Below are positions 1 through 58,399 of a stretch of 64,000 nt of DNA, piece by piece. The notes beneath the pieces are model-generated. The model was given only the letters and a program-made list of their open reading frames with translations, was not told the DNA's origin and did no database searches. The stretch's first letter is position 1. Each line of letters starts with the position of its first letter. The stretch spans positions 59,458,001-59,522,000 of the forward strand of contig NC_043004.1 in the NCBI RefSeq assembly GCF_006345805.1, read 5' to 3'. This stretch comes from Octopus sinensis (taxonomy: Eukaryota). Both the position numbers and the translations under genes were made by a program.

Positions 1-641
1 GACAGGGAGAGAGAATATCTGAAAGGGGGAAAGTGGGTCGGGGAGTGAGGGAGATCACAGATTGATTGTGATAGAGAGGGGATAGAGAGTCAGAGAAAGA
101 AAGAGAGTCAGAGACATAAAGAGTCAGAGAAGAAAGATAGAGAGAGTAAGAGTCAGAGAAAGAAAGAGGGTGAGGCAGAAAAAGAGACAGACATAGATGT
201 GGAGAAAGAGCGAGAGGGGCATAGATAGATATAGAGATAGATAAATAAAAAGAGAGTGGGGATAGAGAGAAAAAAGATAAAGAGAGAGTAAGAGAAAGAG
301 AGAGAGGGTGAGAGGGTGAGAGAAGGAGAGAGACAAAGAAAGTCGCAGATAGAGAAAAACTAAGACAAAAAGACAAGGAGAGAGACTGAAGGATATTGAG
401 AAATATACAAAGAAAAACTGAGGGAGATAGAGAGAGAGAGATAGAGAAAAACAGAGAGACAGATCCACAGACAGAGATGGAGAGAAAGAGAGGGAGGGGG
501 AGAGAATGAGAGAGGGAGAGAAAGACAAAGAGAATGAAAGAAAAACGAATGTATATAGGTGTATGTGTATCTGTGTATGAGAGAGAAAGAGAGAGCGAGA
601 GCGAGTGAGTGATTGTGAGAGAGAAAAAGAAAGGGAGAGAG

Positions 642-682
<41 letters not shown>

Positions 683-720
683 GGAAGAATTTAAGATGAT
701 GAAGAGAAAAGAAAGGAAAC
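1..720. repeat. GA-rich low-complexity / degenerate (GA)n tract
   Basis: Almost purine-only + strand; overlapping ORFs are Leu/Ser/Phe low-complexity translations. Confidence 0.9.
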
Positions 721-853
721 ATTGCAGCATGACAGGCGATGCTATTTGATTGACTAAATTACTTGATCTTCAAAAGAAACAGCAACTTTAATTAAGTGGG
801 AAGATGGATGAAGATGGAGGCTGGAGGCTGCGTAACAATTATGAATGTGTGTG

Positions 854-903
<50 letters not shown>

Positions 904-1158
904 GAGAGAGTGCTCTGTTTGAAGAGTTGGCAAAATTTAGTTGTTTTCTTTGATAATGGGTGCAGCACTTCATTCCATGATTGTGAGGTGTGGTCTTGGT
1001 GTTCAAGCAAAATCATGACAGTCGTAGAGCTGCTGAGGCCTCCGCAGCAGCAGATGCTGCTAGTGATAATGATGGAAATCTCAAAGAGGATGAAGATGGT
1101 AATAATGCTGACATTAAACAGAATGAAATCGATGAGTGTGAGTATAATGAAGGCTGTG

Positions 1159-1186
1159 ATTATTATTATCATTATTATAATTATTA

Positions 1187-1244
<58 letters not shown>

Positions 1245-1258
1245 CATTATTATTATTA

Positions 1259-1343
<85 letters not shown>

Positions 1344-1354
1344 TGTTATTATTA

Positions 1355-1399
<45 letters not shown>

Positions 1400-1442
1400 T
1401 ATTATTATTATTATTATCATCATCATCATCATTATTATTATT
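1159..1442. repeat. (ATT)n microsatellite
   Basis: Direct reading. Confidence 0.95.
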
Positions 1443-1637
1443 AAGGCTTTGAGCTGGTGGAATACTTTGCTTTTCGTCCGCCTTTACGTTCTGAGCTCAA
1501 ATTACACCGAAGTCAACATTGCCTTTCATCCTTTCAGGGTTGGTAAATTAAATACCAGTTGCGTATTGGGGTCGAACTAATCGATCGGCCCCGCTCCTCC
1601 CCAAAATTTCAGGCCTTGTGCCTATAGAAAAAAGGTT
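1443..1637 (+). mobile_element. SINE family B (core GCCTTTCATCCTTTCGGGGTCGATAAATTAAGTACCAG), diverged copy
   Basis: Shares ACGTTCTGAGTTCAAATT..GCCTTTCATCCTTTC..ACCAGTT with copies at 12.4k, 30.8k, 38.9k and 51.6-52.3k; core recalls the Meta/MESC SINE domain (from memory, unverified). Confidence 0.75.
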
Positions 1638-2029
1638 TGTTATTGCTGTTATTATTGTTGTGAAAAGATGTGTGACCGAGGCAAAAATTGTTAGAGTGAA
1701 CGACATTATTCTATGCACCTGTAGACCGGAAGAGGCTCGTGCCTATGGTTGTCAGCGTAATCCGGATCTGAGGTTCCTTGATTGGCCCTAACTGGAGTTT
1801 CTCATGCACCAGGAGGTTTGTAACATTCATGTTATCCCATGCATGGTATACTAAATCTATTTTCATCGCATTCGATCGTCATTTCAATTTTTTCTCCACA
1901 TCCTTTATGTGAATCCCAAAACATATCGTTGTCTTTTCTTGTGATGTCTCCATCTCTGCCCTAGTGGATCATAGAATATCATCATCATCGTCGTCGTCAT
2001 CATCATCATCATCATCATTGCTATTGTTT

Positions 2030-2060
<31 letters not shown>

Positions 2061-2149
2061 TATCATTATTATCATCATCATCATCATCATTATTACTATT
2101 ATTATCATTATTATTAATATTATTATTAGTAGTAGTATTATTATTATTA

Positions 2150-2206
<57 letters not shown>

Positions 2207-2211
2207 TATTA

Positions 2212-5083
<2,872 letters not shown>

Positions 5084-5085
5084 CA

Positions 5086-5210
5086 GTGAGTGAGAGAGCA
5101 GCGCATGAATCAAAGTGACACTGGGTTACAAATATACAAAGCCCAATACGCCCATTATGACCACCCGTCTAATAAGGTTACACCAGGCACATGCATCACA
5201 ACTATTTGCA
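5086..5210 (-). mobile_element. 3' tail (~125 bp) of the ~550-bp (AAT)n-targeted element, joined to an R4/Dong fragment
   Basis: GAGTGAGAGAGCAG..CAAAGTGACACTGGG..CCCGTCTAATAAGG..CCAGGCACATGCATCACAAC matches 47144-47260. Confidence 0.8.
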
Positions 5211-12427: not shown

Positions 12428-12635
12428 TCGCACGCCGGGCGAAATGCGTGGCCGTATTTCGTCTGCTGTTACGTTCTGAGTTCAAATTCCACCGAGGTCG
12501 ACTTTGCCTTTCATCCTTTCGGGGTCGATAAATTAAGTGCCAGTCATACACTGGGGTCGATATAATCGACTTAATCCGTTTGTCTGTCCTTGTTTGTCCT
12601 CTCTGTGTTTAGCCCCTTGTGGGTAGTAAAGAAAT
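12428..12635 (+). mobile_element. SINE family B
   Basis: Near-consensus core; tail GCCCCTTGTGGGTAGTAAAGAAATA. Confidence 0.9.
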
Positions 12636-30344: not shown

Positions 30345-31797
30345 ATGTGCGATGAGTAAATTGTTGCTATTTTTTATTTTCAATGTCGCGTATGCGCTTG
30401 AGTATTTTTGATTTTGTCGACTGCACAGTATAGTAGGGTCATGTGGGCATCGTCTGTGAGAAAAACAGCACCATGTCACAATTCACTCTTCCAAGCATTT
30501 GGAACCGACATGCAGTACTGCTTGGTATTCGCGCCGAAAGCTTCCAGTACAAACATTTCGGAATGTTTGGGTGTCAGTCTGAGGACAGTGCAGAGGATTT
30601 GGAAAGAGTTGGATGAGTCTAACTGCGTTTACGAAGGTACGGCAGGTCGGAAAACTTATTCTGATCGTTGTGATGAGAAACGAACTCTTGCATTTGTCGG
30701 TGATGATTGACAACCATTCCTCTAAGTTAATCAGGTCCATCGCCAGGGATATAGGGGTGTTTGAATTTCGTGTGGGACAGAGAGTGCATGAAGACATTCG
30801 GTATTCATTATGCATAAGACGGCGAGTAACGTTAGCACGCCGGGCGAAGTGCTTAGCAGTAATTCGTCTGCGTTACGTTGTGAGTTCAAATTCCGCCGAG
30901 GTTGACATTGCCTTTCATCCTTTCGGGGTCGATAAATTAAGTACCAGTTACGCACTGGGGTCGATGTAATCGACTTAATGCCTATGTCTGTCCTTGTTTG
31001 TCCCCTCTGTGTTTAGCCCCTTGTGGGTAATAAAGAAATAGGTATTCATCATCCAAGATATGAAAGGACCAATTTTTTATCCCAAGTCTTCAGGGACAAG
31101 AGGGATGTCTGCAGTATGAAGCTCAAGGGTCTCGTCCAACCGAAAATGCTTTGGTTTTACTCAGACGAGAAAATTTTCTGCGTAGATAAGATGGTGAACA
31201 CACATAAAAACCGTTGGCTAGCCGTGTACTAAAACATGTACCGAGAGTAAACATCATGTTGTTTGGTATGATCACTAGTGATGGTAACGTTATGTTTACA
31301 TTCGTCTTCCCACACGAGAAAGAGGCCTACATCAAGTGCCTGGAGGAAGTGGTGCTACGCTGGGTCAAGAGGGTGGCTGCTGGAAGACACTATGTCTGTC
31401 AACAGGATTCTGGATCATGTCACACAAGCAGGATGGCCCAGTCAAGGCTGTCAGACAATTTCTGCACCCGCATTACTCCTAACAACTGACTACCTAACTC
31501 CCCAGACTGCAATTCACATCATTATTATTTATGGGGGATAGCTGAGAGAGAGACCAACAAAAATCTTTGTAACACCAAAGATGAACTGAAGGCAAGGACA
31601 ATGGTAGCATTCGCAAACTTAAGCAAGGAGACCGCCCAGAAGATTGCAGGCACTGGCAATTTTATTGAATAAATGAACTCTTTAGTATTTCAAGATATTT
31701 TTATTTTATTTTGGTAAATAAATCTGTAAAAATGAGATGTCAGTATTATTTTCATTTTTGCGTAATTTAGGCGGCAATTATAAACACTGCACCTTTT
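30345..31797 (+). mobile_element. Decayed Tc1/mariner-superfamily transposon (maT/DD37D-like)
   Basis: HTH-like NISECLGVSLRTVQRIWKEL; WFYSDEKIF; QQDSGSCHTS; LPNSPDCN; left TIR-like ATGTGCGATGAGTAAATTGTTGC; interrupted by SINE B. Confidence 0.82.
30816..31040 (+). mobile_element. SINE family B inserted in the transposase
   Basis: Consensus core; flanked by similar GGTATTCATTATGCA / GGTATTCATCATCCA (decayed TSD). Confidence 0.9.
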
Positions 31798-44430: not shown

Positions 44431-44939
44431 TATAACAGTTTTACGTAATGTTTTAATTTCATTTCATCAATGTTAATAATAGAATTTATTTTAGTGGTAG
44501 ACTTCAACTGTCAGCCGGTTGAACATCACCAAATTTTCTTTTAGCCCAGTCCATTCTGTTCTAAATATTAGAATTACGTCACGAGTTAAATAACTTATTA
44601 TAAGTAAGTAATGCATTGCATCGAGAGTGAAATTGCTGAATAAGTAATCACTAACGTTGAAAAAATATTTGATGAAAAGTGAGGTAAAAATTGCTGTCCT
44701 ACTAAACAATAAAATGCAACTATAAGTAATATTTGAGAAAGGTGATTAATGTTCAAATGAACAAACATTAGTAATTACAAGCGAACTATTTGCAATTACT
44801 GGACAAACCTTACATAAATGGCTGCATCCGTATTTAATGAATAAATGATCATTGAAAAAGAAAATCGGCCTTGGATATACGATTAAAAAGTTCGCTTCTT
44901 AGACATATGATTCGGTTTTGTCTGAGTAAGAAAATCTTT

Positions 44940-45075
44940 TGGCGTAGTGGGGCTACTAAACCCCAAATTCCGAGTTCGATTCCAAGCAGTGACCTGAACA
45001 ATAACAATAATAATGATAATGATAATAATGATAATAATAATAAATAAATTATTAATAATAATAATAATAATAACA

Positions 45076-45154
<79 letters not shown>

Positions 45155-45915
45155 TGCAGTACCAGGCAGTGGCTCTCATGGCTTCTGATCTTAACTGATT
45201 GGAAGTGCTATCATGTACATTATTTTGTCTTGGTATAAAAGATGGGCTACAGCAAATATTCTGCTCAGTACCACAGATTTGCTTGTCAGCTGTTTGACCA
45301 TAACCAGTTGAGCATTTCCCTTAGTGGCTGACGATATGTGCATCTCTGATCACGAGCAGAAGTAGTGGGGGAGCATCATAGCCATGTGTTGAGAGGGATT
45401 CTTTGGGGTTTGAATAATTCACCTCTGGAAACACGGGTGGTTTTTCAAACATCCTTAAACAACCCTATTCAGGGACCGTTTGAGCAGGATGGGCTACTCA
45501 ACCTGAAGAAAATTCTAACTGGGCTCCACCTGCAAGGTCATGTGCTGTTTATCTTGATATAAGATCACCATGTCGCGCACATATGGTTGTGATGCATGTG
45601 CCTGGTGTACCCTTATCAGACGGGTATTCATGATGGATATATTGGGCTTCGTATATTTTACCCCAGTGTCACTTTGATGGCATGAACTGCTCTCTCACTC
45701 AATAATAATAATAACAACAACAACAACAGCATCGAAAAATATCTTAGGAACGAGAAACCTGATTCGAAATTTCTCCAAGACAACTGAAGAAGGCTGGAGG
45801 GTATATCAGTCGAAATTTTGTGTTAACAACAAACAAGATGAGGACAGATACCAAATATAAATAATGTAAACAATGTAAATAATGTACATAATTCCTCATC
45901 TCTTAAATATAGAAC
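44940..45915 (+). mobile_element. Composite SINE: tRNA-like head + (AAT)n + hammerhead-bearing tail; hosts a nested insertion at 45154-45700
   Basis: Box A TGGCGTAGTGG, box B GAGTTCGATTCC; HHR motif at 45779-45824; TSD TAAGAAAATCTTT at 44927-44939 and 45916-45928. Confidence 0.85.
45154..45700 (+). mobile_element. ~550-bp non-coding element inserted in (AAT)n
   Basis: High similarity to 47144-47698 (-) and 57848-58399 (+); (AAT)n on both sides. Confidence 0.92.
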
Positions 45916-46059
45916 TAAGAAAATCTTTAATGAACTGTCTTCAATCGTAGCTACATCTTGACCAATGACTATAAGTGGGATTATGTAGAAGGTCATTGTA
46001 CAAAAGTAAGTTTCAGAGATATATGTGTCTGTTGGCTGTGCGTATCACTGTGCATGCAT

Positions 46060-47143: not shown

Positions 47144-47697
47144 GAGTGAGAGAGCCGTGCATGCCATCAAAGTGACACTGGGGTAAAATACACGAAGCCC
47201 AATATACCCATCATGACTACCCGTCTGATAAGGGTACACTAGGCACATGCATCACAACCATATGTGCGCGACATGGTGATCTCATATCAAGATAAACAGC
47301 ACATGACCTTGCAGGTGGGGCCCAGTTAGAATTTTCTTCAGGTTCAGTAGCCCATCCCGCTCATAAGGTCCCTGAATAAGGATTGTTTAAGGATGTTGAA
47401 AGAACCACCCATGTTTCCAGAGGTGAACTATTCAAGCCCCAAAGAATCCCTCTCAACACATGGCTATGATGCTCCCCCACTACTTCTGCTTGTGATCAGA
47501 GATGCACGTATTATCAGCCACTAAGGGACATGCTCAACTGGTTAAGGTCAAACAACTGACAAGCAAATCTGTGGTATTGAGCAGAATATTTGCTGTAGCC
47601 CATCTTTTATACCAAGACAAAACAATGCACATGATAACACTTCCAATCAGTTAAGATCAGAAACTATGAAAGCCACTGCCTGGTACTGCATCAGGGC

Positions 47698-50484: not shown

Positions 50485-50863
50485 ACTCTCTCTCTCTCTC
50501 TATCTCTATCTCTTAGTCTGCTTATTTACCACCTATCTATTTTTCTGCCAATATATATCTTGTCTTTATCTACCTGCCAATCCACAACTTCAATTGAAGA
50601 AACAATATATTCAACTAAAGATATGTTTATATATGTTCTAATATTTTTAATCGGTATGAGTTAAAAAGTCATTCAACAGCCAAGAGTTTCTGGTATAGCA
50701 TTTATCATACACGATACTGCTCGCGCTTGAATTGCTTTGTAACTTCTGCCGTGTAGAATTAATAAAATATCTTTCTATCTGAGCCATAATAAATAAAAGC
50801 ATTAACAGTATATTATGATCCTGTCACAGTATGAGAATGACTTGCACGCAAAGAAAAGTATTC

Positions 50864-51159
50864 CAGGTTTATATTTAAGAGATGAGGAATTTACATTATT
50901 TACATTTGACAGATATTTGTCCTCATATTTTTGTTGTTAACACAACGTTTCGGCTAATATACCCTCCAGCCTTCACCAGGTGTCTTGGGAAAATTTCAAA
51001 CCTGGGTTCTCATTCCTAAGGTATTTTTCGATGTTGATGTTGTTGTTGTTGGTGTTTCTATAGCTTTTTTAGAGAAATCTTGTCATCTACTGGTACTACT
51101 ACATCAATTAGAAAGCATTCTTCTTCTTCTTCGTCTTCTTCTTCTTATTATTATTATTA

Positions 51160-51238
<79 letters not shown>

Positions 51239-51338
51239 CAGGTCACTGCTTGTAATCGAACCGGAATCTTGGGGTTAGTAGCCCGCGCTCTTAACCACTA
51301 CGCCATATGCCCGTGACCTGAATAATAATAATAACAAC

Positions 51339-51410
<72 letters not shown>

Positions 51411-51557
51411 AGCAACAACATCGAAAAATACCTTAGGAATGAGAACCAAGGTTCGAAATTTCCCCACGACACCTGATGAATGCTGGGGGCTATGTCAGCC
51501 GAAAGGTTGTGTTAACACCAAAAAAGATGAGGACAACTCATCAAATATAAATAATGT
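50864..51557. mobile_element. Head-to-head pair of the tRNA-head/HHR-tail SINE: full copy on - (50864-51312) plus inverted partial copy on + (51313-51557)
   Basis: tRNA-like head at 51238-51312 (-); HHR motifs at 50939-50984 (-) and 51468-51513 (+); TSD AAGAAAAGTATTC at 50851-50863 and 51558-51570. Confidence 0.85.
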
Positions 51558-51565
51558 AAGAAAAG

Positions 51566-52310
51566 TATTCTTTACTACCCTAAGCACAAGGTCCGAAATT
51601 TGGGGTGGGTGAGCAGGGGGCCAGTCGATTAGATCGAAACCAGTACACAACTAGTAGCTAATTTATCGACTCCGAAGGGATGAAAGCAAAGTCGACCTCA
51701 GCGGAATTTGAACTCAGAACGTAAAGACAGACGAACTACCTATTTATTTACTATCCACAAGGATCTAAACACAGAGAGGACAAACAAGGACAGACAAACG
51801 GATTTAGTCGATTATATCGACCCCACTGCGTAACTGGTACTTATTTAATCGACCCCGAAAGGATGAAAGGCAAAGTCGACCTCAGTGGAATTTGAACTCA
51901 GAACGTAGCGGCAGACGAATTACCGATAAGCATTTCACCAGGCGTGCTAACGTTTCGTATTTCTTTTTTGCACACAAGGGGCTAACCATAAAGGGGACAA
52001 ACAAGGAGAGACAAACGGATTAAGTAGATTATATCGACCCCAGCGTGGAACTGGTACATAATTTATCGACCCCGAAAAGATGAAAGGCAAAGTCGACCTC
52101 GGCGTAATTTGAACTCAGAACGTAGCGGCAGACGAAATACCTATTTCTTTACTACCCATAAGGGGCTAAACACAGAGGGGACAAACAAGGACAGACAAAC
52201 GGATTAAGTCGATTATATCGACCCAAGTGCGACTCAGAACGTAGTGGCAGACGATATACCGCTAAGCACTTCGTTCGGCGTGCTAACGTTTCAGGCAGCT
52301 CCCCACCTTT
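51566..52310 (-). mobile_element. Array of four nested/tandem SINE family B copies
   Basis: ACTCAGAACGTA..CAGACGA occurs four times (~51712, 51896, 52113, 52232); units ~51566-51740, 51741-51956, 51957-52141, 52142-52310. Confidence 0.9.
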
Positions 52311-57848: not shown

Positions 57849-58399
57849 CCTGAAGCAGTACCAGGCAGTGGCTCTCATGACTTCTGATCTGAACTGATTG
57901 GAAGTGTTATCATGTACATTGTTTTGCCTTGGTATAAAAGATGGGCTACAGTAAATATTCTGCTCAATACCAGAGACTTGCTTGTGAGTTGTTTGGCCTT
58001 AATCAGTTGAGTATGTCCCTTAGTGGCTGACGATATGTGCATCTCTGATCACGAGCAGAAGTAGTGGGGGAGCATCATAGCCATGTGTTGAGAAGGATTC
58101 TTTGGGGTTTGAATAAATCACCTCTGGGAACATGGGTGTTTTGTTCAACATCCTTAACCAACCCTTATCCAGGGACCTTTTGAGCAGGATGGGCTACTTG
58201 ACCAGAAGAAAATTCTAACTGGGCCCCACCTGCAAGGTCATGTTTTGTTTATCTTGATATGAGATCACCATGTCGCGCACACATGGTTGTAATGCATGTG
58301 CCTGGTGTACCTTTATCAGACGGGTAGTCATGATGGGTATACTGGGCTTCGTATATATACCCCAGTGTCACTTTGATGGCATGCACTGCCTTTTCACTC
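57848..58399 (+). mobile_element. ~550-bp (AAT)n-targeted element, full length
   Basis: Collinear with 45154-45700; (AAT)n flanks. Confidence 0.92.

Follow-up and report, generated by a model that had tools for sequence, protein, structure and literature searches.

The repeat unit analyzed here, in which a tRNA-like head is followed by an (AAT)n linker and by a tail with a hammerhead motif, is, judged from sequence comparison, the pseudo-LTR of a Penelope-like element (PLE) with an ORF for RT and GIY-YIG domains. We consider it moderately probable that this is a PLE with a tRNA-derived head in its pseudo-LTR, that the head likely serves as a built-in promoter, and that the short copies of the unit are made by the element itself. 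The unit was recognized in two insertions within the window (the whole stretch of 64,000 nucleotides that was analyzed), where a sequence-only reading had described it as a candidate new SINE type, transcribed by Pol III, self-cleaving, and mobilized by a PLE enzyme. Mobilization by a PLE RT/GIY-YIG protein is supported by the adjacency of the head to the ORF, by a complete copy of the element (L261), by PLE-type 3' ends, and by back-to-back pairs and target site duplications (TSDs).

Two insertions in the window

The first insertion (44927–45928) consists of the following features:

44927–44939, plus strand: left TSD, 13 bp, an exact repeat with only two occurrences within the window
44940–44997, plus strand: tRNA-derived head, 5'-truncated, starting at box A (92% to the family head over 44950–44997)
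44998–45154, plus strand: left part of the (AAT)n linker
45155–45700, plus strand: 546-bp repeat nested in the (AAT)n linker and foreign to the unit, with three further copies in the window beside (AAT)n
45701–45729, plus strand: right part of the linker, (AAT)n/(AAC)n
45730–45916, plus strand: pseudo-LTR tail with the long 3' end, containing the first codons of the ORF and the ~30-nt extension (the start of the body)
45779–45824, plus strand: minimal type I hammerhead motif, damaged, with the predicted cut between 45819 and 45820
45916–45928, plus strand: right TSD, 13 bp, the second of the two occurrences of the exact repeat

The bracketing of this insertion by a 13-bp direct repeat was confirmed, but the notion that the repeat encloses one unit was not, since 546 of the 1002 bp (45155–45700) are a separate, nested repeat. 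Motifs resembling boxes A and B are indeed present in the window, as are an (AAT)n/(AAC)n tract and the three tail copies described earlier. The head of the first insertion begins at tRNA position 8 and keeps box B; relative to the intact family head, an internal deletion has removed 11 nt of the D-loop region. Its hammerhead has lesions in stem I, in stem II, and in the palindromic CG, and each of the three hammerheads in the window carries a core or stem lesion (3/3).

The nested repeat is found at 45155–45700, 47144–47690, 57855–58399, and 5088–5208 of the window, in every case beside (AAT)n, and its copies are 86–94% identical to one another. It yields 6 matches per 400 kb of evenly spaced genome stretches, occurs also within the linker of PLE units at three loci (L051, L114, and L164), and looks microsatellite-targeted.

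The second insertion (50851–51570) is an inverted pair:

50851–50863, plus strand: left TSD of the inverted-pair insertion, 13 bp
50864–51035, minus strand: long-ended (3') tail belonging to the minus-strand arm (93% to the majority sequence of the family)
51036–51237, minus strand: linker of the minus-strand arm, composed of (AAT)n, (AAG)n, ~70 bp of other sequence, and (AAC)n
51238–51312, minus strand: tRNA-like head of the same arm, full-length (96% to the majority sequence of the family)
51313–51416, plus strand: last 9 nt of the head and (AAT)n linker of the plus-strand arm
51417–51558, plus strand: tail of the plus-strand arm, with the short 3' end and no extension (tail positions 1–145, 90%)
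51558–51570, plus strand: right TSD of the inverted-pair insertion

The head–linker–tail order previously reported at 50864–51312 is correct, but the unit is not a free-standing copy: it forms one arm of the inverted pair at 50864–51558, which has a 13-bp TSD of its own. The tail copies at 50864–51035 (minus strand) and 51417–51558 (plus strand) are 80–83% identical to the first tail (45730–45916, plus strand).

Other repeats were observed in the window and in the fetched loci. At 2558–4030 (minus strand), two pieces of non-LTR retrotransposon ORFs, with RT motifs and a likely restriction-like endonuclease region, lie between (AAT)n/(ATA)n tracts; these may be of the R4/Dong type, and similar coding DNA adjoins the head in L037 and L052. 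An abundant short repeat (51620–51760, 51806–51927, 52023–52161, 30859–30975, 12454–12571, and 1473–1624; 78–84% between copies) is also frequent in the fetched PLE loci, and we take it to be probably one of the common host SINEs. An AT-rich repeat of ~250–300 bp in L062–L090 (query L056:2603-2798), with partly inverted ends and internal repeats of 10–11 nt, is unrelated to the PLE and possibly a miniature DNA transposon.

A coding element with a tRNA-like head

The genome searched amounts to 2.72 Gb, and the loci examined were the best 40 of 97–4176 candidates per search. Because best-scoring matches were used, young copies are over-sampled; segmental duplication accounts for at least one pair of loci (L027/L030), and a back-to-back pair does not provide two independent arms. 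Head sequence lies 5' of the tail in 34 of 57 tail-selected loci, which bears out the genome-wide linkage of head and tail proposed from the window. In three head-selected loci, the DNA 5' of the head translates into the end of an RT and endonuclease protein. A query of the genome with RT-EN DNA gave 1811 candidates, and among the 30 loci fetched from these, the head follows the end of the ORF within ~20–30 nt in 26. A query with the 5' body gave 274 candidates, and the tail runs straight into the ORF body in 12 of the 30 loci examined. The element is therefore ordered as ORF end, head, (AAT)n, tail (the ORF start, with the hammerhead motif and a hairpin), and body, and in the complete copy, L261 (tail, body, head, linker, tail), the tail flanks the body on both sides. 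The sequence-only reading had suggested looking for an autonomous PLE with a tail-matching pseudo-LTR, and the coding element seen in L261 has such a pseudo-LTR.

The protein was characterized largely by way of its homologs. RT motifs were found in L103 and L108, and L103 has an open stretch of 551 aa with RT and GIY-YIG-type motifs. This stretch, on which Pfam itself recognized no family, has 1665 homologs at E ≤ 1e-20, the best of which is 68% identical and scores Pfam RVT_1 at 1e-11; RVT_1 was recognized on three homologs. The endonuclease region aligned over the whole query, with one homolog (P0064) scoring Pfam GIY-YIG at 1.6e-5 and another (P0003) weakly (0.23), and we infer the GIY-YIG domain name for the element's own copy by homology. 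The reading frame that opens at the ATG in the tail is stop-free for 102 codons in the family majority, crosses the hammerhead, and aligns with the N-terminus of P0003 with a score of 189 (natural copy L166); the tail is the start of the ORF. The Penelope/Poseidon clade name is assigned by resemblance, in domain order and in pseudo-LTR layout. A second PLE family that could serve as a within-genome control was not found, the three low-identity loci fetched out of 58 matches being of the same family. Internal deletions in four loci (L153, L116, L164, and L262) drop the hammerhead or fuse the head directly to later parts of the tail, which suggests template jumps during reverse transcription.

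The head is 72 nt long and contains both boxes, A and B. It can be aligned in register with tRNA genes of the host, its first G falling on position 1 of the host tRNA-Cys and tRNA-Ala genes, and the boxes have been kept where the cloverleaf has been lost. In a sample of 40 host tRNA loci (7 isotypes), which is too small to single out one donor, its best partners are Arg(TCT), Cys, and Ala. Measured against 30 distinct host tRNAs, the head-bearing 3' end has a z of 10.2, whereas z is ≤3.0 for 22 related PLE 3' ends, and a tRNA-like segment was found in none of those 22 (from a set of 80 related loci, those with a 3' end readable up to the hammerhead, some of them near-duplicates). The in-register alignment and the z of 10.2 thus support the tRNA derivation first proposed for the head. 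ARAGORN found no tRNA in the window, and the head was recognized by neither ARAGORN nor Rfam.

The 5' ends of copies are concentrated at the start of this head. In 71 head matches that were not selected on the head, starts fall at −10 to +5 in 30 cases, at −30 to −11 in 8, at −299 to −31 in 4, at −300 or beyond in 5, and inside the head in 24, some of the negative starts being artefacts of inverted partner arms; the per-base stop rate is 0.040 at the head start, compared with 0.0017 upstream. The 57 tail-selected loci, counted as one match each, end in the tail (5), in the linker or without a head (18), inside the head (12), at −10 to +5 (15), at −30 to −11 (4), or further upstream (3). Genome-wide counts of exact 32-mers are 3137 for the tail, 578 for the head, 153 for −28 to +4, 315 for −60, and 349 for −160. 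When scaled by the match rates in sampled copies, the counts fall ~4.7-fold (95% range 1.7–14) from the head to 60 nt upstream and 1.4-fold (0.6–3.4) over the next 100 nt.

In the explanation that we favor, a tRNA or SINE head would have entered the 3' UTR of an ancestral element, and transcription would begin a few bases before the tRNA-like +1. Transcripts of tRNA genes begin just before the tRNA +1, and Pol III initiation at the head, with which the concentration of 5' ends there is consistent, appears reasonably likely from the sequence. The protein would then cut both target strands and prime at two sites that flank the arm of the hairpin, one site per strand; two-site priming has been shown in vitro for Anolis Poseidon (PMC11167929). 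The cDNA would extend at most to the 5' end of the RNA, giving SINE-sized single copies or head-to-head pairs, and the hammerhead would leave most templates uncut. The promoter of Drosophila Penelope, which is described as LINE-like and TATA-less (PMC2377424), counts against a Pol III head.

It is possible, although on balance unlikely, that this is an ordinary PLE in which the tRNA fragment is a passenger, left by an old insertion into the 3' UTR, and that Pol II transcribes the element, using the pseudo-LTR or promoters in the flanking DNA. The 5' peak would in that case reflect a Pol II start at this place, or stalling or fold-back of the RT at an inverted repeat around +1. Such an inverted repeat is present at −7 to +4 and is overlapped by the peak, which is broad (−17 to +5); the 5' ends span ~20 nt, with 24/71 inside the head. 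The stem of the inverted repeat, however, is merely 4–5 bp. The passenger reading is also favored by the rarity of the head in the 5' repeats that are linked to a body: among those reaching the linker it is present in one of five, vs 34 of 52 tail-selected copies. That single case, L166, starts at +3 and joins the ORF body, and none of the five extends upstream of the head. RNA-seq gives no direct sign of Pol III transcription: on L261, two runs from a related organism show equal depth for the two read orientations, the depth tracks the DNA copy profile, and there is neither a start pile-up at the head nor a head-specific signal. These runs, and two contig sets compared with L261, carry no strand or start information and do not separate the back-joints of circles from matches to other genomic copies, so that they weigh neither for nor against Pol III. 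Furthermore, PLE families normally consist of truncated pseudo-LTRs, both single and inverted (PMC4209133). Against a passenger fragment stand the coincidence of the boundary with the start of a tRNA gene, the first G being position 1 of tRNA-Cys and tRNA-Ala, and the retention of both boxes after loss of the cloverleaf, and a sense strand free of TTTT would have to be a coincidence.

This last feature was evaluated against several null models. The majority sense strand has no TTTT in 2533 nt, where the expected number is 4.4 when bases are shuffled (P 0.005), 2.3 when synonymous codons are shuffled (P 0.05), and 1.85 when dinucleotides of the body are shuffled (P 0.13), so that the absence is significant under one of the three models and borderline under a second. 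Single copies have no TTTT in the body (L262 and L344), one (L261), or two (L103). Not one of 22 related units is free of TTTT, and runs lie between the end of the ORF and the hammerhead in 18 of the 22 related PLE ends; for ORFs, one of 42 related ones is TTTT-free, and the sense strand of the element is T-poor anyway. A related PLE on a metagenome contig (L268) has no TTTT in its 1.9 kb ORF, six runs in its 3' UTR, and no tRNA-like segment, which shows that a TTTT-free ORF can arise without the head.

Because TTTT is absent from the sense strand and L166 joins the head start to the ORF body, the whole unit of ~2.7 kb, together with the short copies, could conceivably be driven by Pol III from the captured head, with an uncapped RNA translated from the ATG just 5' of the hammerhead. 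We regard this extension as doubtful, given the T-poor strand, the one TTTT-free ORF among 42 relatives, and the head in just one of five body-linked 5' repeats. An uncapped message would not be out of the question, since there are reports of translation being promoted by ribozymes at the 5' end of retrotransposon RNAs (PMC13725137). If Pol III did read the whole unit, this would be a coding retroelement run by a small-RNA polymerase, which would run against the expectation stated for LTR elements in PMC10886601.

Insertion ends, short copies and the hammerhead motif

The 3' ends of 222 tail matches form two clusters ~30 nt apart, at positions 140–154 (69 matches) and 170–189 (102 matches), which flank the 3' arm of a 9-bp hairpin. 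PLEs have an optional extension of 30–40 bp (PMC8557442) that sits between two RT start sites (PMC11167929), and the spacing of the two clusters matches this extension. A 9-nt unit in the hairpin loop (tail positions ~130–146) varies in copy number, with 21 insertions of 9 nt and 22 of 18 nt, and these changes preserve the frame of the ORF start.

Back-to-back pairs number 63 in total, of which 17 are unclassed; the 46 classed pairs combine a long with a short 3' end in 42 cases, two short ends in 3, and two long ends in 1. This excess of long–short pairs (42/46; p 5e-9 among classed pairs) suggests that each target strand is primed at a different RT start site, and it provides genomic support for the priming of both strands from two start sites seen in vitro for Poseidon. 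Arms on both strands (inverted 5'-truncated copies) occur in 69 of 170 composites. TSDs of 8–16 bp, with a mode of 12 bp, were detected in 32 of the 170 (26 of the 69 inverted and 6 of the 101 single composites), compared with 3.3 in shuffled pairings, by a method that detects too few of the single copies; the TSD of the first insertion in the window was itself missed, most likely because the head alignment there begins 10 nt late.

Short copies greatly outnumber those linked to a body. Scaled copy counts come to ~14,600 (tail), 8,600 (head), and 1,300–1,800 (body end), and 400 kb of evenly spaced stretches contain 6 insertion sites, of which one extends upstream of the head; from these 6 sites, ~41,000 are estimated genome-wide (range 14,000–75,000). 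Both the ratio of counts and the single site that reaches upstream would be in keeping with an independent SINE, that is, a non-autonomous tRNA-headed family with a borrowed PLE tail that spreads from its own master copies. A copy with an intact head and the long end would also have all that the RT needs, so secondary spread is possible. Nevertheless, a comparison of 60 short with 30 body-linked copies gave no diagnostic difference among 17 variable sites (smallest p 0.012, at a CpG site). The same variants occur in short and in body-linked copies, which gives no sign of a separate SINE lineage, and the original proposal of a SINE that borrowed the 3' end of a PLE is not supported, the head itself being part of the coding element. 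The 3' ends are of the PLE type, moreover, and the simple repeat occupies a central position instead of an end. An independent SINE family is accordingly quite improbable as the source of the short copies.

The intact consensus hammerhead that had been assembled from the three tails of the window holds for the family, in that the minimal pattern is the majority state over the 159 copies that span the motif. It has a stem I of 5 bp, the core, one bulged base, a 6-bp stem II whose first pair is G-C, and a palindromic stem III of two bases, which requires a dimer. By comparison with the published pattern (PMC4209133), the motif fits the minimal type I hammerhead of PLEs and is a predicted ribozyme. 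The core is intact in 65 of the 159 copies, a figure lowered by the sampling of one query, and the only common core variant outside CpG affects N7, a free position, with T in 99 copies and A in 54. A C variant at the U16.1 position was dismissed as a sampling effect of one query, from which 28 of the 33 such copies came. Stem covariation within the family is absent in the 159 copies, as it should be if copies decay neutrally. Seventeen related PLE ends from metagenomes have this pattern in the corresponding place with different paired letters, and stem II has at least 4 bp in 16 of 18 PLE ends, this family included.

Rfam did not corroborate the motif: no hammerhead family matched on the units, a scan of 12 loci at the gathering score gave no match, and narrow scans gave no tRNA or hammerhead family. 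For the whole window, the 150 of 304 matches listed contain only microsatellite-driven microRNA matches below threshold. With both Rfam and ARAGORN silent, the tRNA and ribozyme readings rest on the alignments and on the published minimal-hammerhead pattern.

Thirteen tail matches start at positions 89–99, near the predicted cut (92/93), compared with 11 that start within the 74 positions flanking this interval. Internal deletions explain ~4 of the 13, and the others tend towards 96–99, at the base of stem I, where an RT stall could fit equally well. The whole region 5' of the predicted cut is retained in 141 of the 222 tail matches, from which we infer that most templates are left uncut by the hammerhead, as in vitro for Poseidon. 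A retrozyme-type element, in which RNAs cut at successive hammerheads would circularise and be copied as monomers or tandem arrays, is highly improbable: it would account for starts near the cut, and animal retrozymes have been proposed to derive from PLE pseudo-LTRs (bioRxiv 10.64898/2026.07.22.740005), but those starts include deletions and possible stalls, the region 5' of the cut is mostly kept, and the loci listed hold single copies or inverted pairs with no head-to-tail arrays.

Relation to known systems

Several of the components described here are already known, namely hammerheads in PLE pseudo-LTRs, short truncated PLE copies, schistosome repeats in which a hammerhead accompanies a Pol III promoter, and non-autonomous LTR elements that contain tRNA segments. 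A coding PLE with a tRNA-derived head was not found in the open full-text literature searched, including passages of PMC10886601, PMC6765202, PMC7229834, PMC13282606 and its supplement, PMC8967140, PMC6685494, PMC4758252, and PMC6962438. The family may already stand in Repbase, Dfam, or SINEBase, which lie outside this literature search, as a SINE or as Penelope.

The closest known systems are EN+ PLEs of the Penelope/Poseidon type (e.g., Poseidon_Ac from Anolis). Like this element, they have one ORF in which RT precedes GIY-YIG, pseudo-LTRs arising from partial tandems, inverted 5' copies, and an optional extension of 30–40 bp, flanked by two RT start sites at a stem-loop that lies within the start of the ORF (PMC11167929, PMC8557442), and in Anolis Poseidon the ORF also starts within the hammerhead (PMC11167929). 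The element described here differs in having (AAT)n and a 72-nt tRNA-like segment with boxes A and B between the end of the ORF and the hammerhead, no such segment being present in the 22 related ends, and in the piling up of its 5' ends at the head.

The schistosome repeats SM-alpha and Sj-alpha, which are short and dispersed, likewise have a Pol III-type promoter 5' of their type I hammerhead (PMC6765202). Those repeats, however, are non-coding and often in tandem, whereas here a minimal PLE motif lies in the terminal repeat of a coding element; schistosome genomes are reported to contain thousands of canonical hammerheads beside minimal PLE ones (PMC4209133). TRIMp3 elements (Cassandra, Helenus, and Ajax) also carry a promoter-like segment derived from tRNA or 5S inside the terminal repeat of a retroelement, although they are non-autonomous LTR elements with a PBS, a PPT, and TSDs of 4–5 bp (PMC10886601). 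In the present case, it is the coding element that carries the tRNA segment, with PLE chemistry, TSDs of 8–16 bp, and PLE-type ends. For the autonomous partners of TRIMp3, Kojima (2024) argues that Pol II must be used (PMC10886601). Animal non-LTR retrozymes resemble the short copies in being short hammerhead repeats related to PLE pseudo-LTRs, and they are distinguished by the head-to-tail arrays and circular RNAs that define them (PMC7229834, bioRxiv 10.64898/2026.07.22.740005). Neither "tRNA" nor "Pol III" is mentioned in bioRxiv 10.64898/2026.07.22.740005, nor "Pol III" in PMC7229834.

The short copies share with tRNA-derived SINEs the tRNA-derived head, units of 250–450 bp, TSDs, and a high copy number. 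They are set apart in that their partner is a PLE, of which the head itself is a part. Three octopus families of tRNA-derived SINEs were reportedly described by Ohshima and Okada in 1994, and an octopus SINE is said to have been named "Twin" by Albertin in 2015, a name that did not turn up in the literature search. The tails of SINEs mimic non-LTR partners (PMC10886601), whereas the 3' ends found here are two PLE-type ends at the start of a PLE ORF and not a LINE mimic. The family suggests how a SINE-like repeat can arise inside its own parent, when a tRNA segment in a PLE pseudo-LTR gives rise to short tRNA-headed copies, of which there are tens of thousands in this genome, and that annotation pipelines would split such a family into a "tRNA SINE" and a "Penelope."
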